Assembly: GCA_020723995.1 (NCBI GenBank)
Contig: DYHT01000005.1
Span: forward strand, 3,211-67,210
Direction of reading: 5' to 3'
Source: Chloroflexus sp.
GTDB lineage: Bacteria; Chloroflexota; Anaerolineae; Anaerolineales; Villigracilaceae
Length of the DNA stretch: 64,000 nucleotides
Shown: positions 11,690 to 44,683 of the stretch, piece after piece
How the letters are laid out: every line of letters starts with the position of its first letter
Numbering within the stretch: the first letter of the stretch is position 1
The notes under the pieces: generated by a model
Databases searched by the model: none
Told to the model about the DNA's origin: nothing
What the model saw: only the letters and a program-made list of their open reading frames with translations
Made by a program: the position numbers and the translations under genes

Positions 11690-11718
11690 TTGACAAAAGG
11701 TAATTTATGGTGCATACT
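11690..11718 (+). promoter_or_regulatory. Putative sigma-70 promoter, TTGACA-17 nt-CATACT, with the -10 ending 6 nt before the ATG
   Basis: Hexamers and spacing read directly. It has the same architecture as the promoter at 21439-21467. Confidence 0.5.
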
Positions 11719-11724
11719 TTCCTT

Positions 11725-13020
11725 ATGACAAGGAAAGATTTGTTAAAAACCATCATTACTGATAGCCAGAGACGGGCTTTTCCAGAGATATGGGAGCGAA
11801 CGCTAAAGATCCCTGCCGAGAGTGGAAAGATCATTACGTTGACAGGAGTGCGCCGCAGTGGGAAGACGTATCACCTTTTTAGCCTCATGCGCCAACTCAA
11901 GGCCAGTGGGATACCGCCGGAAAGGATCTTGTACATCAATTTCGAGGATGAGCGCTTGCAGATATCGAGCGGCGACCTGGATTTGATCTTGCAGGCCTAC
12001 CAGGAGTTATATCCCCAACTCGAATTGTCGGATTGTTATTTTTTCTTCGACGAGATCCAGGAGGCGGAAGGATGGGAGAAATTCATTGCCCGACTCTATT
12101 CAACCATCAGCCAGCGCATTTTTATAACAGGCTCCAACTCCAGGCTGCTTTCACAAGAGATTGCAACCGCCCTGCGAGGCAGGACGATCCCTTTCGAAGT
12201 GTATCCTTTGTCTTTCTCTGAATACGTGCGGGTTCTTTCTCCCGGGTTGAATCCCTACAGTAGCGCGGACAAAGCCAGACTCGCGCATCTTTTCGAACGC
12301 TTTATGGTAGGGGGCGGCTTCCCCGAACTCGTCACACAAAAAGAAGAGTTGAAGGAAAAAATCCTGCAAGAATATTTCAACGTAATGGTTTTCAGAGATA
12401 TGGTGGAACGTTATCGCATTTCCCAGACGCCGCTCCTCAAATATTCCTGCAAAAGGGTGGTCGGCGCGAGCGCGGGAGAATTTAGCGTGAACAAGATTTA
12501 CAACGAACTGAAATCACAAGGGTATCAGGTGGGGAAGGACACCCTCTACGCCTATCAGGGATATATCGAGGCGATCTACTTGAGCCGATTTGTCCCGAAG
12601 TATTCTTTTTCAGTGGTGAAAACGGAAGGATCGCAAAAGAAAACCTACGTGATAGATACGGGATTGGGGTCTGCGCTGGATTACAAATTCAGCCAGGATC
12701 GGGGGAGACTGCTCGAAACGGTTGTTGCACTGGAGTTGATCAAACAAGGCCGGCAGATTGCTTATCAGCAAAATGGTGGTGAGTGCGATTTTGTGACGAT
12801 CGAAAAGGGCCGCGTGACAGAGGCGATCCAGGTATCTGCGGATTTTGCCGGCGCTCGAACCAAAGAGCGCGAAACTCGTGAGCTGATCCAGGCTTGTAAA
12901 AAAATCGGCTTGCGAACCGGAACCATCCTCAGCCTGGATTACGACGAACAATTCGAGATGGACGGAATACAAGTATCCATTCTTCCTGCATGGAGGTATT
13001 TCTTTCGTTCAGGAGAATGA
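11725..13020 (+). CDS. AAA_14 / DUF4143 family ATPase (paralogue a)
   Basis: It has a Walker A motif (GVRRSGKT) and a C-terminal DUF4143-like block (YVIDTGL..ECDFV..AIQVS). The nuclease-type ExK position reads QVS here. Confidence 0.85.
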   Translation: MTRKDLLKTIITDSQRRAFPEIWERTLKIPAESGKIITLTGVRRSGKTYHLFSLMRQLKASGIPPERILYINFEDERLQISSGDLDLILQAYQELYPQLELSDCYFFFDEIQEAEGWEKFIARLYSTISQRIFITGSNSRLLSQEIATALRGRTIPFEVYPLSFSEYVRVLSPGLNPYSSADKARLAHLFERFMVGGGFPELVTQKEELKEKILQEYFNVMVFRDMVERYRISQTPLLKYSCKRVVGASAGEFSVNKIYNELKSQGYQVGKDTLYAYQGYIEAIYLSRFVPKYSFSVVKTEGSQKKTYVIDTGLGSALDYKFSQDRGRLLETVVALELIKQGRQIAYQQNGGECDFVTIEKGRVTEAIQVSADFAGARTKERETRELIQACKKIGLRTGTILSLDYDEQFEMDGIQVSILPAWRYFFRSGE

Positions 13021-13090
13021 AGAGTAGTAACGGCATGGGAACTGTAAATCCGCAAGGCAGCGCGAAAGTGTATAATTTGACAGGAGATAC

Positions 13091-13310
13091 ATGAGATGGC
13101 ATCGAATATCCCGCCTCGCTGGAGTTGCACAAGATTTACCGCGTGCTACCTGATAAGGACGCGCAAGCCGACGGCGACATGTGAATCATTGACGAGAGCG
13201 GAGAAGATTATCTTTTCCCCGCTGATTATTTCATCCCTATTGAGTTGCCGCACACGATTGTCCGAGCATTGAACAAATCGTTTGTGCGGACACCTGCCGC
13301 TGCCGGATAA
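13091..13310 (+). pseudogene. Small conserved-hypothetical gene, decayed
   Basis: It has its own TATAAT (13069-13074), an AGGAGA SD and an ATG at 13091. The conserved-looking frame (LELHKIYRVLPDKDA..IIDESGEDYLFPADYF) is offset by 1 nt from that ATG and contains an in-frame TGA at 13182-13184. Confidence 0.4.
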
Positions 13311-13367
13311 TCAAAACGGCGCGTCGCAATAGGCGCGTCGTTTTTCATCCTTCACAATTCATCCTTT

Positions 13368-14258
13368 ATGCGCCCCCTCAAAGTCTTCCCTTCGACTTCG
13401 CTCAGGGCAAGCCTCTGCCACGCCCACAGTGACGCGGCCGCTGTGCGGACTCTCTACAGCCGCCTCATAAAAGACGGCGTGGATGCCTGGTTGGATAAAT
13501 CACGCCGCCGTGTTGAGGACATGATTTCAGAAGGAGGTAATTACCATGTGTCATACTTTCCGCCCGCCCTTCCTGGTCGTTGTATTTTCTCTGTTGATGG
13601 CTGGCTTTGTTCTCACAGGGTGTACACCCGCACAACCAACACCCACCCCCACACGGTGACCCTGGATGCCTTCTGGATTGACCAGACTGAAGCGACCAAT
13701 GCCATGTATGCTCTGTGCGTACAGGCTGGGGTTTGTCAGCCTCCCCAAAACAGCAGTTCTTCCACGCGTCCCAGTTATTACGGCAATCCCGAGTTCGACT
13801 ATTACCCACTTGTCTTTGTGGACTGGAACATGGCGAATGCCTACTGCACATGGGCAGGGCGCAGGCTGCCCACCGAAGCCGAGTGGGAAAAAGCGGCACG
13901 GGGCACGGATGGGCGCACTTATCCCTGGGGGGAGGGGATTGACTGCAACCACGCGAATTATCTCGGTTGTGAGGGCGATACAACCGCCGTTGGCAGTTAC
14001 GAGAGCGGTAAGAGTTTTTACAGCGCGTATGATATGGCCGGCAATATTTGGGAATGGGTGAGCAGCTTGTACAAGCCCTACCCTTACAGTGCAATCGACG
14101 GGCGCGAAGATTTGAATGCAACAGGTTCGCGAGTGCTGCGTAGCGGCACGTGGTTCTTTGGCGATTTCTTCGTCCGTTCTGCCATCCGCTACTATGCCGA
14201 TCCTACATTCGCCGACGTCAACCTCGATTTTCGTTGCTCCCGTGGCACATTCCCGTAG
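13368..14258 (+). pseudogene. FGE-sulfatase (SUMF1-type) domain lipoprotein, frame-disrupted, preceded by a TIR-like N-terminal remnant
   Basis: AAGGAGGT plus ATG at 13546 opens a lipoprotein signal peptide ([11 protein letters not shown]) that stops at TGA 13657-13659, just after a C-run. The FGE domain ([36 protein letters not shown]) continues in a different frame. Residues 13368-13500 resemble a TIR start ([31 protein letters not shown]). Confidence 0.7.
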
Positions 14259-14432
14259 GGGGGCTTACTTCTCTAGTCCTGAACGTAACTTTTGCGAAAT
14301 CAGTACGAGAATCGTAGAAAGTGGCAAAAAATGGTTTGGGCGCGGCGGTTTGCCAGAGGCCTGAAAAAAGAGTTGTTTGCCAGCCAACCAGACCTCCGTG
14401 TTCTCGCAGAACTCGGTGGTCTGCTTTAACGG

Positions 14433-14438
14433 TATAAT
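14433..14438 (+). promoter_or_regulatory. Possible -10 box (GGTATAAT) for glyQS
   Basis: TATAAT lies 50 nt upstream of the ATG at 14488. No good -35 is present. Confidence 0.35.
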
Positions 14439-14487
14439 CCCCTCGCTTCACCAAAGACTATTCTCTAATCTCTACTCTCGAATCCCT

Positions 14488-17400
14488 ATGCCCCAAACCT
14501 TCCAAGCCCTCATCCTCAAACTCCAGAACTTCTGGGCCTCCCACGGCTGCCTCATCTGGCAACCCTATTACACGCAGATCGGCGCGGGGACAATGAATCC
14601 CGCCACCTTCCTGCGCGTGCTCGGACCCGAACCGTGGAACGTCGCCTATGTCGAGCCTTCCGTCCGCCCGGACGATGGGCGCTATGGCGAGAACCCCAAC
14701 CGTTTCCAGCAGCACACCCAATTCCAGGTCATCCTGAAGCCCGACCCGGGCAACCCAGTGGAACTCTATTTGCAGTCGCTGGAGGCCATCGGCATCAATC
14801 CCCGCGAACATGACATCCGCCTGGTGGAGGACAACTGGCAGCAACCGGCCATCTCGGCCTGGGGCCTGGGCTGGGAAATCTGGCTGGACGGGCAGGAGAT
14901 CACCCAGTTCACCTATTTTCAGCAGGTCGGCGGGCAGAGCCTCGACCCGGTGGCGGTTGAGATCACCTACGGGCTGGAGCGCATCCTGATCGCGCTCAAT
15001 AACGCCGCCGCCATCTGGGACGAACCCTGGGGCGCGGGCGTGACCTACGGCGAAGTCCGCCGCCGCGATGAGTTCGAGCACAGCAAGTATTACTTCGAGA
15101 CTGCCGACGTGGCGCGCCTGCGCCAGATGTACGATCTGTTCCGAGCAGAGGCAGAAGCCTGCCTGGCGCAGGGGCTGGTCGTCCCGGCGCACGATTACGT
15201 GCTCAAGTGCTCGCACACCTTCAATACCCTCGACACACGCGGCGCCATCGGCGTGACGGAGAGACAGGCGTTTTTTGGGCAGATGCGCGAGCTGGCCAGA
15301 CGGGTGGCGGAAACGTATCTAGAGCAGAGGAAGGCGTTGGAGTATCCTCTTCTAAAAGATGAAAGCGGAAAGATGAAAGATGAAATAAAGCCATCCATCC
15401 TTTCATCTTTCATCTCTCATCCTTCATCCTTTCTCCTTGAGATCGGCACAGAAGAATTGCCTGCAAATGATGTGGGCGCGGCCCACGCGCAGCTCGCAAC
15501 CCGTATCCCGTTACTCCTCGACGAACTTCACCTCACCCACGGCGACATCCGCGTCTTCTCGACCCCGCGCCGGCTGACCGTTTCGATCGACTCTTTGTCT
15601 CCCCGACAGCCCGACCGCGAGGCGCTCGTCAAAGGGCCGCCCGCGGATAAGGCCATCGTAGGTCGGACTGGCAGTCCGACCTACACCCCCGCCGCGCAAG
15701 GATTTGCGAAGAAGAACGGCGTTAGCGTCGAGTCTCTCGAAGTCCGCGAACAGGACGGCGGTAAATACGTCTTTGCTGTGGTCAAGCAGGCGGGACGTCC
15801 CACTCCCGAAGTGCTGGCGGATGTTTTAGCGAGCGTGTTGGTGGGCATCAAATTCGAGAAGTCCATGCGCTGGAACGACTCAGGCGTTGCCTTCTCGCGT
15901 CCGATCCGCTGGCTGGTTGCGCTGCTCGGCAACCAAGTGATTCCATTTGAATACGCGGGCGTCGTCTCAAGCAATGTGACGCGCGGCTTGCGTCCGTATG
16001 ATTCGCCTGAAATCAAAATCCCCTCCGCCGACAAATACTTCGACGTGATTCGCGAAGCAGGAATCGTTTTGGATTACGAAGAGCGCAAAGCCTCCATCGT
16101 GGAACAAGTCAAACAAGCCGCGGCGCTGGTCGGCGGCGAAGCCATCATTGACGAAGGCCTGCTCGCCGAAGTCACCAACCTGGTCGAAATGCCCACCGCC
16201 GTGATGGGAGGATTCGATCCCGCATTCCTGCAACTGTCGCGTGATGTGCTGATTTCGGTGATGAAGAAGCACCAAAGGTATTTCCCTGTCGAACGTCAAA
16301 CAGCCCGCCCTGAGCCTGTCGAAGGGTCAAAGGTCGCGGATTCGACGTCCGACGTTCGACCTTCGACATTGTTGCCGCATTTCATCGCCATCCGCAACGG
16401 CGACTCGGAGAATCTAGACCTCGTCCGGCAAGGCAACGAACACGTCCTGCGCGCCCGCTTTGCGGATGCTGATTTCTTCGTCCGCGCTGACCTGAAACAC
16501 AAGCTGGAGGACTTCCGCCCGCGGCTGGGCACGCTGATTTTCCATAAGAAACTCGGCTCGATGCTGGATAAGTCTGAGCGCATCGAAAAACTGACCGGCG
16601 CGCTGGTCCCGCTACTGGGCCTGGAAGTGGATGAGGCGACTTTTGCCCGGCGTGCCGCCCACCTGGCAAAGGCCGATCTGGTCACCAAGATGGTAGTCGA
16701 GATGACCTCGCTGCAAGGCGTCATCGGCCGCGAGTACGCGCTGCGCGCCGGCGAAAGTCAGGCCGTTGCCGATGCGATTGGCGAGCAATACCAGCCTGTC
16801 CCCAAGACCAAAGCCGGCCTGGCCGTTGCCCTGGCCGACCGCCTTGACTCACTCGTTGGTCTCTTCGCGGCGGGACTGGCTCCCACCGGCGCGAAAGACC
16901 CATTTGGCCTGCGGCGCGCCGCGAACGGCGTGGTTCAACCGTTGATCGAACATAATATTTCTTTCGATTTGCGCGCCGCGGTCGAAAAGGCCGCCAGCTT
17001 GCAACCCATCGAAATCAGCGCGCAGGTGCAGGCGCAGGTGCTGGATTTCATGGCGGGCCGCTTGTCTGTTCTGCTCAAAGACTCGGGTTACAAATACGAT
17101 GTCGTGGACGCGGTCCTCGCCGCACAAGCGGATAACCCGGCCGGTTCGGCGCGCACCGTCAAGCAATTGCAGGCATGGACTGAGCGCAACGACTGGCATG
17201 AGATCTTGCCCGCCTATGCCCGCTGCGTGCGCATCATTCGCTCCGCGCAAGTAAACAGTGATCAGTTACCGGTGATCAGTGAAAAACTACTTGTCGAAGC
17301 GGAAGAAAAGAATTTACACGGCGCGATCCAAAAGAATGTCAAGACTCCTCCCGCATCTGTAGATGAGTGCCTGGAAATTGTAGTCAGACTCATTCCAGCC

Positions 17401-17535
17401 ATCAACGTCTTCTTCGATAAGGTGCTTGTGATGGCTGAAGACGAAATGATCCGGCAAAACCGTTTGGCGCTGGTCGGACAAATTGCCAATTTGTCCAACG
17501 GCATCGCCGATTTGAGCAAACTGGAAGGATTCTAG
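14488..17535 (+). CDS. glyQS: Glycine--tRNA ligase, fused alpha and beta subunits
   Basis: The N-terminus [28 protein letters not shown] is GlyQ-like and [11 protein letters not shown] onward is GlyS-like. The start is placed at the Met that aligns with the truncated copy at 10878. Confidence 0.93.
14548..15066 (+). repeat. 519-bp direct repeat, right copy
   Basis: See 10932-11450. Confidence 0.95.
15358..15434 (+). repeat. Heptamer inverted-block element (GATGAAA)n...(CTTTCAT)n, in frame inside glyQS
   Basis: The heptamers read GATGAAA GCGGAAA GATGAAA GATGAAA, then a loop, then CTTTCAT CTTTCAT CTCTCAT CCTTCAT. They encode [24 protein letters not shown] between the GlyQ and GlyS parts. Confidence 0.85.
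15658..15684 (+). repeat. 27-nt perfect palindrome GTAGGTCGGACT-GGC-AGTCCGACCTAC inside glyS coding sequence
   Basis: 12-bp arms read directly. It encodes VGRTGSPTY. It has the same length and the same GTAGG/CCTAC ends as the intergenic palindrome at 6331-6357. Confidence 0.85.
16286..16378 (+). repeat. Heptamer inverted-block element (..GTCGAA.. / ..TTCGAC..) in frame inside glyS
   Basis: TGTCGAA-type heptamers are followed by CGTCCGA CGTTCGA CCTTCGA. It encodes [25 protein letters not shown] between the conserved HQRYFPV and LLPHFI segments. Confidence 0.75.
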
Positions 17536-17542
17536 GCTTCAG

Positions 17543-17577
17543 CAGGTGACAGTCACTTCGCAAGTGGCTGTCACCTG
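17543..17577 (+). repeat. 35-nt near-perfect palindrome CAGGTGACAG...CTGTCACCTG
   Basis: 10-bp outer arms plus an inner CACTT/AAGTG pair. It lies immediately after the glyQS stop. Confidence 0.7.
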
Positions 17578-17593
17578 CCCTGCGTTTTGCCCG

Positions 17594-17632
17594 CACAAGA
17601 ACCCGTTTTCTCACAGAAAACGGGTTCTTGTG
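17594..17632 (+). terminator. Strong hairpin terminator after glyQS
   Basis: Perfect 18-bp stem CACAAGAACCCGTTTTCT / AGAAAACGGGTTCTTGTG with a 3-nt loop, followed by TTAT. Confidence 0.7.
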
Positions 17633-17641
17633 TTATGCAAC

Positions 17642-17670
17642 TTGCGCCAGCTTCTTTCTGCGTCTATAAT
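17642..17670 (+). promoter_or_regulatory. Putative promoter TTGCGC-17 nt-TATAAT for dnaG
   Basis: Hexamers and spacing read directly, 47 nt upstream of the dnaG ATG. Confidence 0.5.
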
Positions 17671-17716
17671 TCAATTACGCCGACAGCCAAACGCTATCAG
17701 CCAACTGCTAATCGCC

Positions 17717-19675: not shown

Positions 19676-19697
19676 TTTATGCCCCGTTGGGGATATT

Positions 19698-21377
<1,680 letters not shown>

Positions 21378-21438: not shown

Positions 21439-21467
21439 TTGACAATTTCATGGAGTTGATGTATAGT
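21439..21467 (+). promoter_or_regulatory. Putative promoter TTGACA-17 nt-TATAGT, with the -10 ending 6 nt before the ATG (leaderless-type)
   Basis: Consensus -35, 17-nt spacer and near-consensus -10. The ATG at 21474 follows 6 nt later. Confidence 0.6.
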
Positions 21468-21473
21468 ATATTC

Positions 21474-22622
21474 ATGTTTACACGCGCTTACGAACCCCTT
21501 GACGCCCATCTCCGGCCCAATAAGGTGCTGGTGATTTATGGTCCCCGCCGGGTGGGCAAAACCACCCTTTTGCAAAATTACTTGAAACAGACTGGCTTGA
21601 AGTACAAGCTGGATTCAGGCGATAATGTGCGCACTCAGCAACTCTTGAGTTCGCAGGATTTCAACCAGATCCTGCCATACATCGAAGGCTATGAACTGCT
21701 TGCGATTGACGAAGCACAGAATATTCCTAATGTTGGCATGGGTTTGAAAATCATTGTAGATCAGGCGCCCGGTATCAATGTCATCGTAACCGGTTCGTCT
21801 TCGTTTGAACTGGCGGGACAAGTCGGCGAGCCATTGACCGGGCGCAAGCGCACGCTGACGCTCTATCCGCTGGCGCAATCTGAATTACTTTCCACCTACA
21901 ATAAGTTCGAGCTACGCGAACGCTTGTCGGAATTTCTTATCTTCGGTACGTACCCCGAAGTGCTGCAAGCCTCCACGCGGCAGGCACGCATCGAAGTGCT
22001 GACCGAAATCGCAAATTCGTATCTGCTCAAGGATATTCTTACTTTTGACCGCGTCAAAAGCTGGCGTACTTTACTCGACCTGCTCAAACTGCTGGCATTT
22101 CAGGTCGGCAGTGAAGTCTCTCTGGCGGAGTTGGCTACCCAGGTCGGTGTTGACGTGAAGACTGTCCAACGTTATTTGGACTTGCTGGAAAAAGCGTTTG
22201 TGATTATCCGCCTAAGTGGATTCAGCCGTAACCTGCGCCAGGAAGTGACCAATAAGTACAAGTATTATTTTCTGGATACCGGCATTCGCAACGCCGTCAT
22301 TGCCCAATTCAATGGATTGGATCAACGCAACGATGTCGGCGCGTTGTGGGAAAATTTCATACTCCTTGAGCGCCTGAAATATCGGGCGTATGCGGCGCTG
22401 TATGCCAACATCTATTTTTGGCGTACTTATAACCAACAGGAGATTGATCTGATCGAAGAGCGTGACGGGAATCTGTTCGGGTACGAGTTCAAGTGGTCTT
22501 TATCCAAAGCCGTGAAACCGCCTAAAGACTGGCTAAGCGCTTATCCGGAGGCAGTATTCCAGCTTGTTCATCCAGAGAACTACCTGGATTTTGTCCTTCC
22601 CGTTCGAGGCCAAGGCCTATGA
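21474..22622 (+). CDS. AAA_14 / DUF4143 family ATPase (paralogue b)
   Basis: It has a Walker A motif (GPRRVGKT) and a C-terminal block YYFLDTGIRN..EIDLI..YEFKW (D...ExK, PD-(D/E)xK-like). The last 6 codons and the stop lie inside the rpoD-tail remnant. The ORF track starts at 21450; the start at 21474 is preferred from the promoter geometry. Confidence 0.85.
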   Translation: MFTRAYEPLDAHLRPNKVLVIYGPRRVGKTTLLQNYLKQTGLKYKLDSGDNVRTQQLLSSQDFNQILPYIEGYELLAIDEAQNIPNVGMGLKIIVDQAPGINVIVTGSSSFELAGQVGEPLTGRKRTLTLYPLAQSELLSTYNKFELRERLSEFLIFGTYPEVLQASTRQARIEVLTEIANSYLLKDILTFDRVKSWRTLLDLLKLLAFQVGSEVSLAELATQVGVDVKTVQRYLDLLEKAFVIIRLSGFSRNLRQEVTNKYKYYFLDTGIRNAVIAQFNGLDQRNDVGALWENFILLERLKYRAYAALYANIYFWRTYNQQEIDLIEERDGNLFGYEFKWSLSKAVKPPKDWLSAYPEAVFQLVHPENYLDFVLPVRGQGL

Positions 22623-22673
22623 AAGCTGCGGCATCCGACGAGGAGCAGGCATTTTAGGGATTATTTGGAATAG
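22604..22673 (+). repeat. Right copy of diverged direct repeat (decayed rpoD 3' end)
   Basis: After a 1-nt indel it translates to [15 protein letters not shown], compared with rpo[16 protein letters not shown]. Several differences are synonymous (ACC/ACG, CGG/AGG twice). Confidence 0.8.
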
Positions 22674-22724
22674 CCTCGCGAGGGTGGAAAATCAGCCCTC
22701 ATCTTTTTCGTAGACGGGGTAAAA

Positions 22725-23606
22725 TTGAATCACATTTCCGAGTGGAATATGAGTCTACCTTTTTTTCGCACACCCAAGCCCATTGAAAGCCAATTCAGCC
22801 CCCAGGCCGAGATTGTTTTGTATCAGGGCGATGTCAAAGATTTCCTCGCCGAGATACCGAATGATATGGTTAGCTTGATTATTACCTCGCCTCCCTATAA
22901 CCTCGGAAAGGATTATGAAAATCGAGTTTCAATAGTAACATATCTCAAAGCGCAAACTGAAATTATCGCTGAACTTTTTCGTGTGCTGAAAACAGAAGGA
23001 AGCATTTGCTGGCAGGTAGGGAATTTTATAGAAAATGGCGAAGTTTATCCGTTGGACATTTTGTACTACGATATTTTCAAAAAACTCGGCTTGCATTTGC
23101 GAAATAGAATAATTTGGCGTTTCGGACACGGTTTACATGCCTCGAAGCGATTTTCAGGACGTTATGAAACAATCCTGTGGTTTACCAAGAGCGACAAATA
23201 CATATTCAATCTCGATGATATTCGTGTGCCTTCCAAGTATCCTGGTAAGCGTCACTTCAAAGGCGCAAAAAAAGGACAGCTTTCTGGAAATCCATTGGGT
23301 AAAAACCCCTCCGACGTTTGGGAAGTTGTTACGCGGGATTGGGAGGAAGAACTTTGGGATATTCCAAACGTCAAAGCCAATCATCCCGAAAAAACCGGCC
23401 ACCCTTGCCAGTTTCCTATTGAACTTGTCGAGCGTTGCGTTCTAGCGCTGACCAACGAAGATGACTGGGTTTTCGATCCGTTTGCGGGGGTTGGATCCGC
23501 CTTGATTGCGGCAGTTATGCACAACAGGCGCGCGATGGGAAGTGATAGTGATAAGGAAGAAGGTAACTATTCAGCCAGCGCTGAGTACACCGATTTGTCA
23601 CTCTGA
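22725..23606 (+). CDS. Site-specific DNA methyltransferase (beta-class N4/N6, SPPY motif), 3' end interrupted by a MITE
   Basis: Motif IV TSPPYN precedes motif I DPFAGVGS. From codon ~280 the ORF reads into the MITE at 23563. The region is AT-richer. No restriction endonuclease gene was recognised next to it. Confidence 0.8.
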
Positions 23607-23713
23607 GCGGAGCGAAGAGTCCCCTCCAGCGTGGGGGATGCTTCGTCGCACACCGTCCTGGCGGTCGGTGCCAGGGAAAAACGCTCCTCAGCATGACAGG
23701 CCTGAATAGTTAC
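23563..23713 (+). mobile_element. 151-bp MITE, copy 2 (inside an ORF)
   Basis: It matches the family consensus. It is flanked by GAAGAA(G) and GAAGAA(T). Confidence 0.85.
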
Positions 23714-23854
23714 GAAGAATGGGTGAAAGAAATTCGTGATCAGTGTTTAAAAGCAAGAGTGCCTTTCTTCTTCAAGCAATGGGGCGGGATACGCAAGAAA
23801 AAAGCAGGCCGAATCCTGGAAGGGCAAACCTGGGATGAGATTCCAATCCAGTGA
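23714..23854 (+). pseudogene. Displaced 3' end of the interrupted ORF, with a tail resembling the phage Gp37/Gp68 (DUF5131) C-terminus
   Basis: It encodes [46 protein letters not shown]. It is in frame with the methyltransferase ORF once the MITE and one flanking repeat are removed. Confidence 0.55.
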
Positions 23855-26792: not shown

Positions 26793-27287
26793 ATGCTGGC
26801 TGAAAAATATCCGCAAGAAGTGAAGAAGATTCTGGCAAAGTATCCGCCGGAGCAGAAGCGCTCGGCCGTCATGCCGCTATTATATCTGGCGCAACGTGAG
26901 AGCGGTTACGTGACGAAAGAGGCGTTGAAAGATATTGCTGCCATGCTCGAAATAACGTCGACTGAAGTGGTCTCGATCATTGGCTTTTACACGCTTTTCC
27001 ACGATGAGAAGGCTGGCAAATACCGCATGCAAGTCTGCACCGACCTGCCCTGCGCCCTGCGCGGCGCGGACAAGTTCCTCGAGGAACTGTGCGGCAATCT
27101 CGGCGTCAAAGTCGGCGGGACGACTGCCGACGGGATGGTGACGGTCGAGGCGGTGATGTGCCTGGCAGCCTGCGACAAGGCGCCAATGTTCCAGTTGCAA
27201 AGTGCGGATGGCATTGAATATCATGAGAATATGACGGTTGACAGGACGATGGAACTAGTCGAGGCGCTGCGAAAGAGTAAAGCGTAA
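26793..27287 (+). CDS. nuoE: NADH-quinone oxidoreductase subunit E
   Basis: 164 aa with a 2Fe-2S pattern (C..DLPC....CLAACDKAP). The stop codon directly abuts MITE copy 3. Confidence 0.93.
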   Translation: MLAEKYPQEVKKILAKYPPEQKRSAVMPLLYLAQRESGYVTKEALKDIAAMLEITSTEVVSIIGFYTLFHDEKAGKYRMQVCTDLPCALRGADKFLEELCGNLGVKVGGTTADGMVTVEAVMCLAACDKAPMFQLQSADGIEYHENMTVDRTMELVEALRKSKA

Positions 27288-27438
27288 GTAACTATTCAGC
27301 CAGCGCTGAGTACACCGATTTGTCACTCTGAGCAGAGCGAAGAGTCCCCTCCAGCGTGGGGGATGCTTCGTCGCACACCGTCCTGGCGGTCGGTGCCAGG
27401 GAAAAACGCTCCTCAGCATGACAGGCCTGAATAGTTAC
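27288..27438 (+). mobile_element. 151-bp MITE, copy 3
   Basis: It has one substitution relative to copy 2. There is no flanking direct repeat. It abuts the nuoE stop on the left and a truncated HEPN ORF on the right. Confidence 0.85.
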
Positions 27439-34012: not shown

Positions 34013-34315
34013 ATGCTCCCTCTTACATACTATCTCGTTATTTCAGCCATTTTATTTGTGCTTGGCGCGCTGGGCGTGCTGATAAGGCGCAACCCGCTGA
34101 TTATCTTCATGTCGGTCGAGCTAATGCTGAACGCGGCCAACCTGGCATTCGTGGCTTTTGCCCGCTCCTTCGACGTGCTGACCGGCCAGATTTTCGTTTT
34201 CTTCGTCATCGCGGTGGCGGCGGCGGAAGTGGCGGTCGGCCTGGCGCTGATTGTGGTCATCTTCCGCACCAAGCATTCGATTGACGTTGACCTGATGAGC
34301 AGTCTAAAAGGATAG
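34013..34315 (+). CDS. nuoK: NADH-quinone oxidoreductase subunit K
   Basis: 100 aa with three TM segments and the motif [14 protein letters not shown]. Confidence 0.93.
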
Positions 34316-34320
34316 AGAAC

Positions 34321-34450
34321 AGAGAATAGAGAACAGAGAACAGAGAATAGAGAATAGAGAATAGAGAATAGAGAATAGAGATAGAGAATAGTGAATAGTG
34401 AGTCAGTTCGGACTAATCTCTAATCTCCAATCTCTACTCTCTAACACGGA
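34321..34450 (+). repeat. About 13 tandem heptamers (A[T/C]AGAGA), a loop, then about 4 inverted heptamers (TAATCTC)
   Basis: Read directly. It fills the nuoK-nuoL spacer. Confidence 0.9.
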
Positions 34451-34457
34451 GTAACTT

Positions 34458-36659
<2,202 letters not shown>

Positions 36660-36662
36660 CAG

Positions 36663-36702
36663 GTTGGCAGGTTTGAAAGTTAGAACGTTCTAACCTGCCA
36701 AC
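36663..36702 (+). repeat. Compound hairpin GTTGGCAGG...CCTGCCAAC enclosing palindrome GTTAGAACGTTCTAAC
   Basis: Read directly, immediately after the nuoL stop. Confidence 0.75.
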
Positions 36703-36708
36703 GTGGAA

Positions 36709-37250: not shown

Positions 37251-37287
37251 TGAAAAATTTACTGAATATGATTGCCGAGGAAATGCT

Positions 37288-38805: not shown

Positions 38806-38811
38806 AATCCC

Positions 38812-38857
38812 CCCTCACCCCAACCCCTCCCCCGCCGGGAGAGGGGCAGGGTGAGGG
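38812..38857 (+). repeat. Nested hairpin CCCTCACCC..CCCCTC..GGAGAGGGG..GGGTGAGGG
   Basis: Read directly in the nuoM-nuoN spacer. Confidence 0.75.
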
Positions 38858-38869
38858 AACGGAGTTTTT

Positions 38870-40315
38870 ATGACGCAATCCGACCTCTATACAATCCTTC
38901 CAAACATCACGCTCGTCGTCTGGGCCTGCGCGCTTCTTCTGGTTGATTTATTCATCCCGAAGACGCGCAAAGGCTGGACGGCGCTGCTGGCCGCCTTCGG
39001 GCTGGCCCTCTCGCTGGGACTGACCCTCGCCCAGGCCGGCCGCGAAATGTCCGCCTTCAACGGCATGGTCACGCTGGACGGTTTCTCGACCTTCCTGAAC
39101 GTCCTCTTTCTGGGGACCAGTCTGCTCGGCATCGCCATCGCCTACGGCTACCTCAAGCGCATGGGCCTCGAGCGCGGCGAGTATTACACGCTGATGCTCT
39201 TCAGCATCTCCGGCATGATGCTGATGGCGCAGGCCGCCGATTTGATTGTCATCTTCCTCGCCCTCGAATTGCTCTCCATCCCGCTCTACGTGCTGGCAGC
39301 CTTCGCCCGTCCGCGCGCCGACTCGGAAGAGGCGGGCCTCAAGTATTTCCTGCTCGGCGCCTTCGCCACCGGCTTTGTCGTCTACGGCATTGCCCTGGTC
39401 TTCGGCGCGACCGGCGCCACCGCCCTGAGCGGGATTGCCGCTGCGGTGGCGGCCGGCACCTTCACGAAATACCTGCTGCTCATCGGCGCGGCGCTGATTT
39501 TGGTCGGTTTCAGTTTCAAGGTCGCGGCCGTCCCCTTCCACATGTGGACGCCGGATGTCTACCAGGGTGCGCCCACGCCGGTGACCGGCTTCATGGCGGT
39601 CGGCGCGAAAGCGGCCGGATTTGCCGCGCTGCTGCGTGTCTTCGTCACCGCCTTCCCGTCCCTGTACGTGGACCTGGTGCCTGTTCTCTGGGCGCTGGCC
39701 GCGCTGACCATGCTCATCGGCAACCTGGTCGCCATCTCGCAGACGAATATCAAGCGCATGTTGGCCTATTCCAGCATCGCTCACGCCGGATACATCCTGA
39801 TGGCCTTCGTCCCGTACGGCCAGCCGCAGGTCGTGCCGGATGCGGTCGCTTCGGCGCTATTCTACCTGGTGACCTACGCCATCACCTCTTTCGGCGCCTG
39901 GTCGATGGTCATCGCGTTGGAAAAATCTGATGCGAAGGGATTGGAAATCAGCGATTACGCCGGTCTCGGACGGCGCAAACCAGCCCTGGCGGCCGCCATG
40001 ACGATTTTCATGCTCTCGCTGACCGGCATGCCGCCCACGCTCGGTCTGGTCGGCAAGTTCTACCTGTTCCGCACGGTCATCGCAGGCGGTTTCATCGGAC
40101 TGGCAATCGTCGGCGTGCTGACCTCGCTCATCTCCGCATACTACTACCTGCGGGTGGTGGTGGTCATGTACATGCGCGAGGGTGAACCGCAGACCGAATC
40201 CGAACCCTGGCTCGACCTGACCACGGCCACGGCGGCGGTGGCAACCGTGGTGCTCAGCTTCCTACCGGCGGCGCTGTTCGCACTGGCCAGCGGGGCGGTG
40301 GTGAAGTTATTCTAA
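38870..40315 (+). CDS. nuoN: NADH-quinone oxidoreductase subunit N
   Basis: 481-aa antiporter-like subunit (FHMWTPDVYQGAPTPVT). It is the last gene of the cluster. Confidence 0.93.
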   Translation: MTQSDLYTILPNITLVVWACALLLVDLFIPKTRKGWTALLAAFGLALSLGLTLAQAGREMSAFNGMVTLDGFSTFLNVLFLGTSLLGIAIAYGYLKRMGLERGEYYTLMLFSISGMMLMAQAADLIVIFLALELLSIPLYVLAAFARPRADSEEAGLKYFLLGAFATGFVVYGIALVFGATGATALSGIAAAVAAGTFTKYLLLIGAALILVGFSFKVAAVPFHMWTPDVYQGAPTPVTGFMAVGAKAAGFAALLRVFVTAFPSLYVDLVPVLWALAALTMLIGNLVAISQTNIKRMLAYSSIAHAGYILMAFVPYGQPQVVPDAVASALFYLVTYAITSFGAWSMVIALEKSDAKGLEISDYAGLGRRKPALAAAMTIFMLSLTGMPPTLGLVGKFYLFRTVIAGGFIGLAIVGVLTSLISAYYYLRVVVVMYMREGEPQTESEPWLDLTTATAAVATVVLSFLPAALFALASGAVVKLF

Positions 40316-40333
40316 CCCGCGTGTCATTGCGAG

Positions 40334-40544
40334 CAGACCCTAAAGGTCTCTTTGCCTGACTCGCGCCCTGTTTGCAGGCCTCTCTTGCCCGTTGTGGCGA
40401 TGATTCACGCACAAGACCTTTAGGGTCTCGTGCAAAGTCAGACCCTAAAGGTCTCTTTGCCTGACTCGCGCCCTGTTTGCAGGCCTCTCTTGCCCGTTGT
40501 GGCGATGATTCACGCACAAGACCTTTAGGGTCTCGTGCAAAGTC
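40334..40544 (+). repeat. Two tandem copies of a 105-bp unit, each bounded by inverted repeats AGACCCTAAAGGTCT / AGACCTTTAGGGTCT
   Basis: Unit 2 starts at 40439 and reads identical to unit 1. A partial copy (AGACCCTAAAGGTTTCCTTTGC) lies near 48937. Confidence 0.9.
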
Positions 40545-40862
40545 CGCGCTGAGAGTAATCAAAGCGCAGTGGACTGTTTGGAGCGCTGCCGCGTCTCGTC
40601 TTTATTCGCGTCTGAAATCCAAGCGATGTAATTCCTTCTGTGTGAGGGCGGAAGTCTGTTGAAGTTCTCCCACGCCTGCGGGAAGATTGTGTAAGACGCA
40701 AAAGTCGGCTAAGCCTTCACAATATCTCCAGCGTCAGTCGCTATGTCATGGCGATGGCAGTCAGCACATCGTTTTGGCAGATACGCGGCAGCCAAGAACG
40801 TGACCGGGCAGATGGCAAAGTTTATCAGTCGCCGGAGCCGGGCGAAAGAACAAATAATCACA

Positions 40863-40895
40863 CGGCGGCTGACCACAATAACAGGTCAACCGCCG
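40863..40895 (-). terminator. Hairpin downstream of tRNA-Pro
   Basis: CGGCGGCTGACC-9 nt-GGTCAACCGCCG (12 bp, one mismatch), 8 nt from the tRNA 3' end on the minus strand. Confidence 0.55.
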
Positions 40896-40902
40896 GAAAG
40901 AG

Positions 40903-40977
40903 TCGGGGCGCCGGGAATTGAACCCGGGACCTCTTGCACCCCATGCAAGCGCGCTAGCCGGACTGCGCCACGCCCCG
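40903..40977 (-). tRNA. tRNA-Pro (anticodon GGG)
   Basis: I folded the cloverleaf by hand. The acceptor is CGGGGCG/CGCCCCG, the anticodon arm CTTGC-ATGGGGT-GCAAG and the T arm CCGGG-TTCAATT-CCCGG. The discriminator is A and no CCA is encoded. Confidence 0.9.
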
Positions 40978-40990
40978 TCAGCAGGACGGT

Positions 40991-41019
40991 ATTATAGCCG
41001 TATTTGGAAAATCTGGCAA
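40991..41019 (-). promoter_or_regulatory. Promoter TTGCCA-17 nt-TATAAT for tRNA-Pro
   Basis: Read on the minus strand. The -10 ends 13 nt before the mature tRNA 5' end. Confidence 0.6.
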
Positions 41020-41183
41020 TGTCAGCCTGACGATTGACATTCAACGCCTCATCGCGATGGGTGGATACGACAAGTGAGGATCAAACATCGTTACAATTGT
41101 CTAGATCAGGCCTTGACCTGAACAAAGCAATTGCGATATGATAGACGCTTGTGTAAATTCCCCTTTGTGTTATAAATACGTTT

Positions 41184-41705
41184 ATGACTTCCACCTGGTA
41201 TGTCTTAAACACCAAACCTTGCAAAGAAGAGTTCCTGTGGGAGCAGTGCCTTGCACGCGGGTATGAGACATTTCTCCCACGCATCCGTGCACAGACGGTA
41301 AACCCGCGTGCGAGGAAAGTAAGGCCTTACTTTCCAGGCTATATTTTTGTTAATGTGGATATTGAGCGGATCGGTATATCTACGCTGCAGTGGATGCCTG
41401 GCGCTCAACGGTTGATTTCATTCGACGGCGTGCCTGCCAGCGTGCCAGACAGTTTGATCCGAGCCATCCAAAAACGGTTGGAAGAAATCAACGCGGCTGG
41501 CGGCGAATTGTTTGATGGTTTAAAGCCAGGCGATGTGGTCTATATACAGGACGGCCTGTTTGCCGGCTATGAAGCGATCTTCGACACCAGCCTGCCCGGC
41601 AGTAAACGGGTGCGCGTGCTGCTGAAACTGTTGCAGGCTCACCGGCAAATACCGGTGGATTTACCGGCCGGACAGATCAAGCGCAAAGACCCACACAGGC
41701 TATAA
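41184..41705 (+). CDS. NusG-family paralogue (RfaH/LoaP-like antiterminator)
   Basis: It has an NGN-like N-terminus (WYVLNTKPCKEE..PYFPGYIFV) and a KOW-like segment (GDVVYIQDGLFAGYEAIF). It lies directly upstream of gmd. Confidence 0.7.
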   Translation: MTSTWYVLNTKPCKEEFLWEQCLARGYETFLPRIRAQTVNPRARKVRPYFPGYIFVNVDIERIGISTLQWMPGAQRLISFDGVPASVPDSLIRAIQKRLEEINAAGGELFDGLKPGDVVYIQDGLFAGYEAIFDTSLPGSKRVRVLLKLLQAHRQIPVDLPAGQIKRKDPHRL

Positions 41706-41756
41706 ACCATAGCGGAGCGTGGGAAGAAATTCGAGAAAGGGAATCGTAAATCCGAA

Positions 41757-42839
41757 ATGAAAAAAGCTCTCATCACCGGCATTACCGGTCAAGATGGTTC
41801 TTATCTGGCCGAGCTGTTGCTTTCGAAGGATTATGAAGTCCACGGGCTGATCCGGCGCGCCAGCACGTTCAACACCTCGCGGATCGAGCATATCTATAAA
41901 GATCCGCATAATGGTTGCGAACTGCGCAACCATAACGGGGCGCGGCTGTTCCTGCATTATGGGGATGTGACCGACACGGGCAGGCTGGTGGACCTGATCT
42001 ACGGCCTGCGCCCGGAGGAGGTCTATCACTTGGCGGCTCAGTCGCACGTGCGCGTCAGCTTCGACCTGCCTGAACACACTGGCGATGTGACCGCCTTGGG
42101 TACCATGCGTATCCTGGAGGCGATTCGTAAGAGCGGCATCCAGACGCGTTTGTACCAGGCCTCCTCCAGCGAGATGTTCGGGGCTGCCAGGCCGCCCCAA
42201 AACGAAAGCACGCCCTTCGAACCGCAAAGCCCCTATGCCACGGCCAAGGTGTATGCTTACTGGATGACGCGCAACTACCGCCAGGGTTACAAGATGTTTG
42301 CCGCCAATGGCATCTTATTCAACCATGAATCTCCCCGGCGCGGCGAGACTTTCGTTACCCGCAAGATCACACGCGCGCTGGCGGCCATAGTCGCTGGCAA
42401 GCAGAAAGACTTGTACCTGGGCAACCTGGAAGCCAGGCGGGATTGGGGCTATGCCCCGGACTACGTCGCGGCTATGTGGAAGATGCTGCAAGCCGGCGGG
42501 GCCGACGATTTCGTCATCGGCACCGGCGAAGCGCACTCAGTGCAGGAGTTCCTGGATGCCGCCTTCGGCTATGTCAACCTGGATTGGCAGGATTACGTCA
42601 AGATTGACCCGCGCTACTTCCGCCCGACGGAGGTGGACTTCCTGCAGGCGGATCCCAGTAAGGCGCGCCGGGAGCTGGGCTGGGAGCCGCGTGTGTTTTT
42701 CGGCGATCTGGTCAAGGTGATGGTTGATGCAGATATGGAGTTGTTAGGACTGGAATCGCCCGGCGATGGCAAAAAGATTCTGGAGAAATATCATGGCCAC
42801 TGGCACAGGTGGGATACGCAAGTCGTTAGTATGTCTTGA
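41757..42839 (+). CDS. gmd: GDP-mannose 4,6-dehydratase
   Basis: It starts [22 protein letters not shown] and has the YAxxK catalytic motif ([12 protein letters not shown]) and FNHESPRRG. Confidence 0.95.
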
Positions 42840-43195
42840 AAATGAAAAAGACTATTGGTTGGACTCTTGCAATCGCCATCGGGTTGATCCTTCTATTCAT
42901 CCTTCCCAGCTTGTTCATGTTCGGGCATGGCTGGACGGGCTATGGCATGATGAGCGGTTATAGTATGATGGGATCAAGATTAGGCTTCATGCCTTTCGGA
43001 TGGATTGTTATGCTGCTAGGCTGGCTGATCCCTCTGGGGTTGCTCGTTTTGGCTGTCTATGGGATTGTCTCCCTGTTCAATGGAAATAAAGGGACAACCC
43101 CACCCGCTGAACCTGCCCTCACCTGCGCCTAGTGCGGCAAAGCGGTTCAAGCGGACTGGAAAACCTGCCCCTATTGCGGTAACTCGCTGGTATAA
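42836..43195 (+). pseudogene. Small membrane protein with a C-terminal zinc ribbon, interrupted by an in-frame TAG
   Basis: The ORF ends ..TCA-TAG (43130-43132). The same frame continues CGKAVQADWKTCPYCGNSLV*, so the stop sits inside the first CxxC knuckle. Confidence 0.5.
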
Positions 43196-43206
43196 GGAGC
43201 CGCGAC

Positions 43207-43467
43207 GTGTGCTGTGGCGGACACCCTAATCATCTTCTAACCCCGCTGACGGTCGTCCACACTCATACCCTCGACCGGACAGAGCAACATCTGGCAGCCA
43301 GACAAGCCCTCTGCCCTGACTGCCAGATGCCGGTCTCTTCAGATTTCACCTGGTGTCCGCGCTGCGGGACGTCACTCAAGGCGCGCCCTTGCACCTACTG
43401 CGGGCAATTGCTCCAGCCGATGGATTGAGCTTGCGCCCACTGTGGTGCGGCGACAGGAACAAAGTGA
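43207..43467 (+). pseudogene. Double zinc-ribbon protein interrupted by an in-frame TGA
   Basis: The knuckles CPDC..CPRC..CTYC are followed by TGA (43426-43428). The same frame then continues ACAHCGAATGTK*, which holds the fourth CxxC. Confidence 0.45.
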
Positions 43468-43493
43468 CAATCCTCAATAGGCGGAAAATCCAC

Positions 43494-43522
43494 CAACTGA
43501 TGGCGGTATTTCAAGGTATAAT
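43494..43522 (+). promoter_or_regulatory. Putative promoter with consensus -10 TATAAT ending 6 nt before the ATG
   Basis: TATAAT is at 43517-43522 and the ATG at 43529. The -35 is poor. Confidence 0.4.
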
Positions 43523-43528
43523 GTCCCT

Positions 43529-44683
43529 ATGATCCCCCGCACAGCCCTTCTCCAAACCGTCCAGCGCGCCCTTGAACGCAGCCGGGTGGTCGCCCTGATT
43601 GGTGCGCGCCAGTGCGGCAAGACCACCCTGGCACGCCAACTGGTTTCCCCCAATTCAGTCAATTACTTCGACCTGGAAGACCCCTTCAGCTTGGCACGAC
43701 TCGACCAGCCCATGACCACGCTGCAAGAAATGCGCGGGTTGGTAGTCATTGATGAAATCCAGCGCCGTCCCGACCTGTTTCCTGTGCTGCGTGTCCTGTG
43801 CGACCGGGACCCCCTGCCCGCTCGCTTTCTTATTTTGGGGAGCGCTTCACCCGCGCTCCTGCGCCAATCATCCGAATCACTCGCCGGGCGCGTGACGACC
43901 ATCCCCATGAGCGGTTTCAGCCTGGGTGAGGTGGGCATTACCGCGCAGGCACAACATTGGCGGCGGGGTGGTTTTCCGCTCTCTTTTCTAGCGGCATCCG
44001 AAGAAGAGAGCCTCGACTGGCGCAAGGATTTTGTCCTCACTTTCCTGGAGCGCGATGTGCCGCAGTTTGGATTCAATATCCCAGCGACCAGCCTGTTTCG
44101 TTTTTGGAATGTACTGGCGCATTATCACGGGCAGGTTTGGAACACTGCCGAAGCCGCCCGCACCCTGAACATCGGCGCAACCACCGCGCGCCGCTACCTG
44201 GATTTGTTGCAGGACTTATTCATGGTACGCCAACTTCAACCCTGGCACGCCAACCTGGGCAAGCGACAAGTCAAATCACCCAAAATATATATTCGGGACA
44301 CAGGCCTGCTGCATTATCTGCTGGGCATCCGCTCCGAACAGGAACTTGCCCTGCACCCGCGCAGCGGGGCTTCTTGGGAAGGCTATGTAATTGAAGAAAC
44401 GATAAAAGCGGTCGCGCCGGAAGAAGCCTGCTTTTGGGCTACTCATTCAGGTGCTGAACTGGATTTGCTGCTGATCAAGAATGGTCAGCGCATTGGGGTG
44501 GAGTGCAAACGCATGGACGCGCCGCGCCTGACGCCATCCATGAGTATTGCCCTGCAAGACTTGCAATTGGACCGGCTGGTGGTGCTGTATCCGGGGCCGC
44601 ACCCCTACCAATTGGATGAGAAAATCAAGGTACTGCCATTGACAACTCTTGCAGAGAAAACATCTGACCTGATGGTTTCTTGA
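43529..44683 (+). CDS. AAA_14 / DUF4143 family ATPase (paralogue c)
   Basis: It has a Walker A motif (GARQCGKT) and a C-terminal block IYIRDTGLLH..ELDLL..VECK (D...ExK). Confidence 0.85.
   Translation: MIPRTALLQTVQRALERSRVVALIGARQCGKTTLARQLVSPNSVNYFDLEDPFSLARLDQPMTTLQEMRGLVVIDEIQRRPDLFPVLRVLCDRDPLPARFLILGSASPALLRQSSESLAGRVTTIPMSGFSLGEVGITAQAQHWRRGGFPLSFLAASEEESLDWRKDFVLTFLERDVPQFGFNIPATSLFRFWNVLAHYHGQVWNTAEAARTLNIGATTARRYLDLLQDLFMVRQLQPWHANLGKRQVKSPKIYIRDTGLLHYLLGIRSEQELALHPRSGASWEGYVIEETIKAVAPEEACFWATHSGAELDLLLIKNGQRIGVECKRMDAPRLTPSMSIALQDLQLDRLVVLYPGPHPYQLDEKIKVLPLTTLAEKTSDLMVS

Follow-up and report, generated by a model that had tools for sequence, protein, structure and literature searches.

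Three ATPase-nuclease genes and their control regions

A stretch of 64,000 nt from an uncultured Anaerolineales bacterium (Chloroflexota), positions 3,211-67,210 of contig DYHT01000005.1 in assembly GCA_020723995.1 (the window, W), carries three genes for ATPases with a C-terminal nuclease-type region: gene a (11725-13020), gene b (21474-22622) and gene c (43529-44683). The comparisons support all three as discrete single-gene insertion cassettes with their own promoters. L-numbers denote comparison contigs or loci of relatives or homologues. The closest species representative was L002 (79% identity in DnaG), and insertion sites were compared across 80 relatives.

The three open reading frames (ORFs) had been read as AAA_14/DUF4143 paralogues, and the Pfam profile check agreed, with all scores above the gathering cut-offs for AAA_14 (121.6, 94.1 and 89.9 bits for a, b and c; cut-off 27) and for DUF4143 (55.2, 135.2 and 149.5 bits; cut-off 28.1). 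Start codons at 11725, 21474 and 43529 were backed by the N-termini of homologues and by independent gene calls. Walker A was GVRRSGKT in a, GPRRVGKT in b and GARQCGKT in c; Walker A and B were intact in all three, and the G, K and T of Walker A and the D-E of Walker B were invariant or nearly so in an alignment of 103 sequences. The D...ExK block was present in b (EIDL...EFK) and c (ELDL...ECK); in a, as the initial annotation had noted, QVS replaces ExK. As QVS or QVA was kept across the whole a-subfamily, the substitution is an old variant rather than the private decay of a dead copy, and the earlier suggestion that gene a may be nuclease-dead lost its ground.

An AlphaFold model of b, made with the 103-sequence alignment of all three subfamilies, reached a predicted local distance difference test score (pLDDT) of 80.8 (an earlier model from 11 close homologues, pLDDT 37.8, was unusable). 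In the model, an AAA+ module is followed by a winged helix and then by a C-terminal alpha-beta-beta-beta-alpha-beta unit, with the order of secondary structures expected for a PD-(D/E)xK core. Foldseek with the whole model returned AAA+ matches only (RuvB, RFC, ORC, MuB), so nothing specific was learnt on the nuclease domain, and a PDB sequence search with gene b gave no matches.

The family is not wholly without a functional assignment, as the initial annotation had it, because PADLOC already holds PDC-S01 as a defence candidate (PMC12988326). The three genes matched three different PDC-S01 models (a, PDLC04787, 2e-105; b, PDLC04789, 2e-147; c, PDLC04790, 3e-88). PDC-S01, which ranks fourth by frequency among the PADLOC hits in prokaryotes, is a fusion of an ATPase with a domain of the PD-(D/E)xK superfamily, was transferred repeatedly between Bacteria and Archaea, and lacks experimental validation (PMC12988326); DUF4143 is listed among the PD-(D/E)XK families, function unknown (PMC3424549). 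The window genes share the ATPase and a putative PD-(D/E)xK-type domain, whereas their neighbours are housekeeping genes and not defence islands. They are regarded as candidates for an anti-phage (defence) role. The cassettes and their control elements were delimited as follows.

11683..13020, + strand: cassette a, with palindrome TTCCTTGACAAAAGG over the -35 element, CATACT, ATG at 11725 and ORF to 13020; homologous to L193
21378..21473, + strand: control region of cassette b, with palindrome, TTGACA, half-site and TATAGT; conserved in dozens of loci
21474..22622, + strand: gene b (AAA_14 plus DUF4143, PDC-S01) by profile matches; own stop lost
43484..44716, + strand: cassette c, with degenerate palindrome GAAAATCCACCA..TGGCGGTATTTC, TATAAT, ATG at 43529 and ORF to 44683 plus 33 nt

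A -10 hexamer of its own, ending 6 nt before the ATG, had been claimed for each gene, together with TTGACA at a 17-nt spacing in a and b; this was borne out and is conserved in homologues. The elements are TTGACA (21439-21444)-17-TATAGT (21462-21467) for b (11/12), TTGACA-17-CATACT for a (10/12; -10 at 11713-11718) and TATAAT (43517-43522) for c. When 14 kb of the window were scanned for sigma-70-type promoters, those of b and a were the top two matches. The b layout runs from a palindrome ATGGAGT..ACTCCAT (..GGAATGCAACTCCAT..) through TTGACA, a half-site ATGGAGTTG in the spacer, TATAnT and 6-7 nt to the ATG, and was kept in dozens of b-subfamily loci on contigs of very different base composition. 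The c-type palindrome is AAATTCCACCAT-N3-ATGGTGGAATTT, followed by TATAAT, and the a-type palindrome, TTCCTTGACAAAAGGAA, lies over the -35; the promoter-operator layout was thereby kept across the a, b and c subfamilies in many backgrounds. Given the spacing between promoter and ATG, the transcripts are probably leaderless, and the palindrome is a putative operator through which the genes may be autoregulated. No description of a leaderless promoter-operator layout or of flanking duplications of PDC-S01 was found in the literature searched.

The edges of the cassettes were sharp where close homologues were available. DNA homology of cassette c to L181-L183 extends from 45 nt before the ATG to 33 nt after the stop, with none beyond, and homology of cassette a to L193 starts 42 nt before the ATG (11683). 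Each gene had been described as the sole intact gene of an AT-richer insertion. This holds for a and b in base composition (48.6% and 48.5% GC; window, 57.0%), but not for c (57.4%), and the block bracketed by the glyQ repeat (below) is multigene.

Duplicated gene ends at the insertion sites

Gene b lies directly downstream of rpoD, in the following setting.

21307..21377, + strand: functional 3' end of rpoD, last ~23 codons, repeat copy 1; W, L082 and L088 share CGG/AGC-CGG codon variants
22605..22673, + strand: frameshifted 3' remnant of rpoD, repeat copy 2; AGG synonymous codons as in the cassette-free L002; read as the native tail
22674..22708, + strand: terminator-like hairpin and T-run, read from the sequence; conserved in L088; absent from the list of a consensus terminator scan
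22725..23556, + strand: N6_N4 DNA methyltransferase gene, 3' end cut by a repeat resembling a miniature inverted-repeat transposable element (MITE); intact (329 aa) in L088
23557..23713, no strand: MITE-like repeat, 157 nt, with 12-nt terminal inverted repeats GTAACTATTCAG; 1 of 4 copies in the window; joins the methyltransferase gene to the DUF5131 remnant
23714..23844, + strand: remnant of a Gp37/Gp68 (DUF5131) gene, C-terminal part only; L002 and L005 have the gene after rpoD, along with a tcmP-like gene

The diverged repeat of about 70 bp from the last ~23 rpoD codons that the initial annotation had placed around b exists: the copies at 21307-21372 and 22604-22668 are ~70 nt long, 86% identical, and lie around 1.23 kb (repeat score 84; best scores of shuffled sequences, ~27-36). 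The order is thus rpoD, 96-nt control region, b, rpoD remnant, hairpin, truncated methyltransferase gene, MITE-like repeat, DUF5131 remnant and nuo. Having lost its own stop, gene b runs on into the rpoD remnant for 6 codons.

About 25 of the 80 relatives have rpoD, ~500 bp and the nuo operon, i.e. an empty site, and an AAA_14 gene after rpoD was found in none of the 80. L002 and L005 carry a tcmP-like/Gp37 pair between rpoD and nuo, a single rpoD tail and no cassette. The closest b homologues (87-88% identity) occupy the same rpoD position in two other lineages (L088 and L082-L087), with the same junction and remnant. In L082 the cassette is followed by a tcmP-like gene, which makes L002 the empty-site counterpart of L082.

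The functional rpoD tail probably arrived with the cassette, and the remnant would be the native tail, since the codons of the remnant match L002, the functional tails of the three cassette genomes share others, and the terminator follows the remnant; the hairpin would then be the native rpoD terminator. Between L088 and L082, identity is 97-99% in parts of the cassette and 62-79% in variable parts of rpoD, and this mismatch in relatedness between cassette and flank points to exchange between lineages at the rpoD locus.

A restriction-modification-like pair of b and the adjacent methyltransferase was considered and rejected as the default, as remnant and terminator lie between them and the L082 cassette has no methyltransferase. 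AAA_14/DUF4143 genes of two subfamilies adjoin N6_N4 methyltransferase genes at three loci (L193 5001-7146; window 21474-23556; L088 6867-9168), which may be chance or an occasional restriction-modification-like pairing; the a-type gene beside a methyltransferase in L193 keeps the pairing as a minor lead. The four copies of the MITE-like repeat (4563-4719, 23557-23713, 27282-27438, 55284-55440) are 96-100% identical and end in 12-nt inverted repeats, GTAACTATTCAG/CTGAATAGTTAC. No transposase gene was identified in the window.

Gene a lies between gyrB and glyQS, with the following features around it.

10878..11451, + strand: glyQ', first copy of the 5' end of glyQS, truncated; begins 5 nt past the gyrB stop; taken to be the recipient's native 5' end
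11441..11450, no strand: microhomology CCGCCGCCGC, 10 nt, seen when the junction was aligned with both glyQS copy 2 and the intact L002 flavin adenine dinucleotide (FAD) gene
11452..11589, - strand: N-terminal remnant of an FAD-dependent oxidoreductase gene (FAD'), ~46 codons; 87% identity to L002:4066-4208, where the gene is intact
13368..14258, + strand: ORF with a TIR-like N-terminus fused to FGE-sulfatase; L003, L009, L012 and L025 have an FGE gene upstream of glyQS
14489..17535, + strand: intact glyQS, first ~70 nt and upstream read as donor-type; 14499-15066 is repeat copy 2

A duplication of the glyQS 5' end had been reported at gene a. The repeat is real (10883-11450 and 14499-15066; 568 nt, 97.7% identical, repeat score 1071), but it brackets a partly ancestral block of 3.05 kb, comprising the FAD remnant, gene a and the TIR/FGE gene, and not gene a alone. 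The FAD remnant has the same relative position and orientation as the intact gene in L002, and the TIR/FGE gene would be an ancestral neighbour of glyQS and not part of the gene a insertion. The first ~70 nt of the two glyQ copies are strongly diverged and the remainder is identical bar one mismatch; this abrupt switch from diverged to identical at ~nt 70 of glyQS copy 2 fits a homologous crossover, without being proof of one. At the other end, the glyQ'/FAD' joint sits in the 10-nt CCGCCGCCGC common to both parent sequences. Relatives have a single glyQS 5' end. The look for empty sites that the initial annotation proposed succeeded at rpoD but not here, no relative with gyrB directly beside glyQS having been found.

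These observations are consistent with a single event in which L002-like donor DNA would have crossed over homologously ~70 nt into glyQS, while an illegitimate joint at the microhomology would have linked its other end to position ~573 nt of another copy of the recipient glyQS. Gene a would have been a passenger within the variable region of the donor; the corresponding region in L002 holds toxin-antitoxin pairs. Both the glyQ'/FAD' junction and the order rpoD-b-remnant-methyltransferase were present at 100% identity in Logan contigs (SRR13164374), possibly from the same sample as the window.

Broken small ORFs were seen beside cassette a (13075-13310) and beside c (43130-43470). One codes for a small protein that looks conserved but is interrupted by an in-frame stop (..YLFPADYFIPIELP..), and the others hold several zinc-ribbon (CxxC) fragments, which suggests earlier cassette turnover. 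Within the fused glyQS ORF, roughly at the GlyQ/GlyS boundary, 15354-15432 contains a 32-nt imperfect inverted repeat rich in AAAGATGAAAG, perhaps a palindrome inserted in frame into the linker.

Cassette c had been placed at a classic integration target, the 3' side of a tRNA gene.

44809..44882, - strand: tRNA-Lys(CTT), 3' end facing cassette c, 92 nt away

The position was correct, but no duplication accompanied it. The 3' 25-mer of tRNA-Lys matched once in the window at up to 3 mismatches, with no second copy; the best repeat flanking c scored 23, i.e. chance level; and no integrase lay near c. The c-type cassettes of the close homologues L181-L183 are not beside tRNA-Lys. A tRNA-targeted genomic island was therefore rejected for c, there being no integrase, no duplicated 3' part of the tRNA and homologues elsewhere that are not at tRNA-Lys. 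The GDP-mannose dehydratase beside c was looked up as an exact sequence, to find strains lacking c, and gave no match.

Flanking repeats in the family and around other cargo

To score flanking repeats in the b-subfamily, 3 kb upstream were compared with 3 kb downstream of the gene in 54 independent metagenome loci, and direct repeats with a score of at least 60 were counted (chance maximum, ~36). Such repeats flanked 13 of the 54 b-subfamily genes and 3 of 408 control ORFs from the loci of relatives (Fisher p = 8e-11; p = 2e-5 in a conservative count restricted to gene ends). The expectation that other paralogues would have duplicated ends of neighbouring genes in their flanks was therefore upheld, several of the 13 being gene ends. 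The duplicated stretch was 73 nt from the 5' end of the gene downstream in L148, 184 nt from a 5' end in L123, and 62 nt (L143) and 140 nt (L168) from the 3' end of the ORF upstream; L089, which was not one of the 54 loci, had 58 nt duplicated. The sequence of the repeat differed from locus to locus, so the repeats are derived from the target and not from the cassette; their length ranged from 35 to >500 nt. The three control genes with repeats were one reverse transcriptase, likely part of a diversity-generating retroelement that has template and variable repeats, and two proteins with repeat domains (CARDB, fn3), whose repeats are likely paralogous sequence.

On their left side, the cassettes in the b-subfamily began ~85-190 nt ahead of the ATG, and on their right they ended 3-41 nt past the stop; no common terminal motif, inverted repeats or attC/att-like core was seen at the boundaries of these loci. 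The initial annotation had noted no integrase, transposase or recombinase with any copy. This stands: no integrase or transposase was found within ~5 kb of a, b or c, and among 150 ORFs flanking b-subfamily genes no recombinase family was enriched, the neighbours being varied housekeeping genes.

The same scar was found around other cargo. In L025 (groundwater Chloroflexi) the last ~115 nt of rpoD are duplicated (13442-13561 and 14511-14630; ~91% identical) around an MNT/HEPN toxin-antitoxin pair, and a second, PIN-type pair follows ahead of nuoA. In L002 the 5' end of a TIR-like gene, with the same N-terminus as window ORF 13368, is present three times (4430-4573, 5549-5686, 6427-6494) between the FAD-oxidoreductase gene and glyQS and brackets VapBC-like and RelE/ParE pairs; these look like insertions made in series, with a separate target duplication for each. 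The scar is thus not specific to nuclease-encoding elements, as the MNT/HEPN, VapBC-like and RelE/ParE cargoes look unable to cut DNA.

Horizontal spread of the cassettes across phyla is suggested by the distribution of homologues. Those of b were found at 77-89% identity across Anaerolineales, Longilinea and a spirochaete, with the 80-82% homologues at unrelated sites, and those of a came mostly from candidate-phyla-radiation bacteria; this distribution of a and b indicates wide horizontal transfer. Cassette c recurs at 92.5% DNA identity in L181-L183 in a different gene context. Homologues in phage records were few (11, weak), with 162 in plasmid records, and phages were accordingly set aside as an unlikely vehicle.

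Several further features were recorded. Near dnaG, L088 carries a reverse transcriptase beside an Avd-like gene (1273-2692) and L015 a reverse transcriptase between 128-nt repeats (2779-4587), and both look like diversity-generating retroelements. A perfect tandem duplication with a 105-nt unit (40334-40543) lies 3' of the last nuo gene (38870-40315) and 5' of tRNA-Pro (40902-40977), and an intergenic array of a 7-nt repeat (AGAGAAT/AGAGAAC) occupies 34295-34392, before the ORF starting at 34458. A 32-nt sequence resembling repetitive extragenic palindromic (REP) elements, GT.TTCCCTTCG.CTTCG.TCAGGGCAAGCCT, occurs in the TIR/FGE ORF (13383-13414) and beside a MITE-like copy (55221-55252). At the right end of the window (63001-64000) GC falls to 45% with strong GC skew, and this may be another foreign segment.

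Routes of insertion

The reading we favour, and hold to be reasonably probable on the sequence comparisons, is that the cassettes enter by homology-facilitated illegitimate recombination (HFIR) of the host, which gives an insertion with long target duplication. HFIR was defined as the combination of a one-sided homologous anchor with an illegitimate joint (PMC3240628). The cassettes would not insert themselves but would arrive on DNA from related organisms and be taken in by host recombination. One end would be joined by a homologous crossover inside the conserved neighbour (rpoD or glyQS) and the other by an illegitimate joint at microhomology; if this joint lies within the anchor gene, part of that gene's end would be duplicated. 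Once in place, the cassette could be exchanged between lineages at the same locus through its conserved flank, and repeated events, each trimming the non-anchored side, would shrink it to promoter plus ORF. This reading explains why ends of conserved genes flank the cassettes and why glyQS copy 2 switches from diverged to identical. The microhomology joint at site a likewise points towards host recombination, and the duplicated gene ends around toxin-antitoxin cargo suggest that the scar reflects a general, host-mediated route and not an activity of the cargo. The original HFIR work is said to have been done in Acinetobacter, Streptococcus and Pseudomonas. The classical outcome of HFIR is replacement or deletion of recipient DNA, whereas here the anchor would have been duplicated; shared with it are the illegitimate joint at a short microhomology (10 nt at site a) and, on the proposed reading, the homologous anchor in a conserved gene.

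For restriction-modification genes, insertion with long target duplication was reportedly described by Nobusato et al. in 2000. It is known for such genes of all types, without mobility genes and mostly in competent species, and includes one single-gene case, mcrA (PMC2853133). Furuta et al. (2010) recognized it by direct repeats of >30 bp around an insert of <20 kb, with one target copy in the empty-site genome. Repeats of this kind lie around a (568 nt/3.05 kb) and b (~70 nt/1.23 kb), not c; the target is single in relatives (the rpoD tail in L002, L005 and >20 others; the glyQS 5' end); and no mobility gene was found in or beside the inserts, either in the window or among the 150 ORFs flanking b-subfamily genes. 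A small nuclease-type gene and variable repeats of >30 bp that often overlap the ends of neighbouring genes complete the likeness. The differences are that the cargo is PDC-S01 without a methyltransferase partner, or toxin-antitoxin pairs in relatives, that the rpoD copies are diverged, suggesting that one came from a donor, that one joint is a defined microhomology, and that the host belongs to Chloroflexota. In the minimal mobile elements of Neisseria and the displacement of type VI secretion effector-immunity genes in Vibrio cholerae, cassettes without mobility genes are reportedly swapped between conserved flanks by host recombination, and incoming modules are said to leave remnants of the displaced gene end at times. 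Homology in those systems is mostly two-sided and the species are naturally competent, whereas here one side is illegitimate and a duplication results.

Several points weigh against the HFIR reading. Cassette c has no scar at all. The call of donor versus native tail at rpoD depends on a few synonymous sites. Duplication by HFIR would need two recipient copies, e.g. sister chromosomes, a step we infer. The repeats at L145, L158, L164 and L181/L182 are REP-like or of low complexity and not gene ends (those flanking the c-type genes of L181 and L182, REP-like intergenic repeats, were not counted as target duplications). The control genes were mostly core genes, so the enrichment may reflect only recent insertion. 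Finally, right edges 3-41 nt from the stop in many independent loci, which we would attribute to repeated trimming under selection, would also be explained by a mechanism that recognizes the ends.

The initial annotation had proposed either self-mobilizing or homing genes that target conserved gene ends or mobilization in trans as minimal cassettes. Of the two, the latter is favoured. No recombinase was consistently linked to the genes. Under homing, the ATPase-nuclease would cut conserved gene ends in cassette-free genomes and repair would copy in the cassette with a replacement end, in the manner of the free-standing endonuclease ORFs in fungal mitochondrial genes or of the life cycle proposed for restriction genes. 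The PD-(D/E)xK-type domain and the putative DNA-binding winged helix in the model of b would suit such a role, as would the 87-89% clade of b that is always at the rpoD tail, the strong enrichment of flanking duplications, the tight cassette edges with no linked recombinase, and the proposal of Furuta et al. that long target duplication is driven by the double-strand breaks that restriction enzymes make (PMC2853133). But toxin-antitoxin cassettes seemingly unable to cut DNA bear the same scar, a 3-kb block moved through a microhomology joint at site a, b homologues of 80-82% identity sit at unrelated sites, the repeats have no motif in common, and the a-subfamily, which lacks ExK, is equally widespread; homing is thus judged quite unlikely. 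A related idea given a similarly slender chance is that PDC-S01 is a class of single-gene selfish elements whose nuclease provokes breaks near conserved gene ends or at its own palindromic operator, with repair installing the cassette along with a long target duplication of variable length. The tight right edges and the strong enrichment leave a little room for an active role of the nuclease. An insertion of the Campbell type, in which a circle of cassette plus captured gene end is excised by recombination between the repeats and, through one homologous crossover, integrates into that gene in a new host, is unlikely as well, if the foremost of these alternatives. It predicts direct repeats of gene ends that are diverged at birth and variable in length, and re-use of sites, and so fits site b, its sharing by three lineages and the serial toxin-antitoxin cassettes in L002. 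The site a copies, identical over ~500 nt beside a diverged 70 nt, are hard to obtain from a foreign circle, however; the first capture at each new target and the microhomology joint are left unexplained, and a circular form was not observed.

A dedicated recombinase encoded elsewhere and acting in trans (integron-like, a tyrosine or serine recombinase, or a MITE transposase) is very improbable: the four-copy MITE-like family implies a transposase active in this genome at some time, and L089, a b homologue, has a phage-type integrase at a distance of 1.8 kb and adjoins tRNA-Met, but there are no conserved termini, inverted repeats or attC-like sites, the repeats are locus-specific and range from 35 to >500 nt, no recombinase family is enriched among the 150 neighbouring ORFs, and the MITE-like copies do not flank the cassettes. 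The least credible view is that nothing here is mobile and that the genes are old residents, with repeats due to local duplication, gene conversion or assembly artefact. Gene b is indeed syntenic in three lineages with a divergence similar to that of rpoD, and a near-identical glyQ repeat of ~500 nt could come from a collapsed or chimeric assembly of strain variants. Opposed to this are the empty rpoD sites in >20 relatives, cassette c at 92.5% DNA identity in an unrelated context, homologues of ~80% identity in other phyla, the deviating GC content of a and b, the Logan contigs with the same junctions (with the proviso on their sample given above) and the disagreement in relatedness between cassette and flanking genes.

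Were PDC-S01 indeed a selfish element, it would have a life cycle like that of restriction genes without a transposase or integrase, and the leaderless design would allow expression in almost any host. Under HFIR, the favoured reading, the sites here and in relatives give a concrete and testable picture of how single-gene defence candidates may spread without genes of mobile elements. The leaderless cassette, if true, would be independent of the ribosome-binding signals of its host. Insertion with long target duplication would reach beyond restriction-modification genes to include another nuclease family as well as toxin-antitoxin pairs, and a very common, uncharacterized defence candidate would be linked to a known but little-studied mode of insertion.

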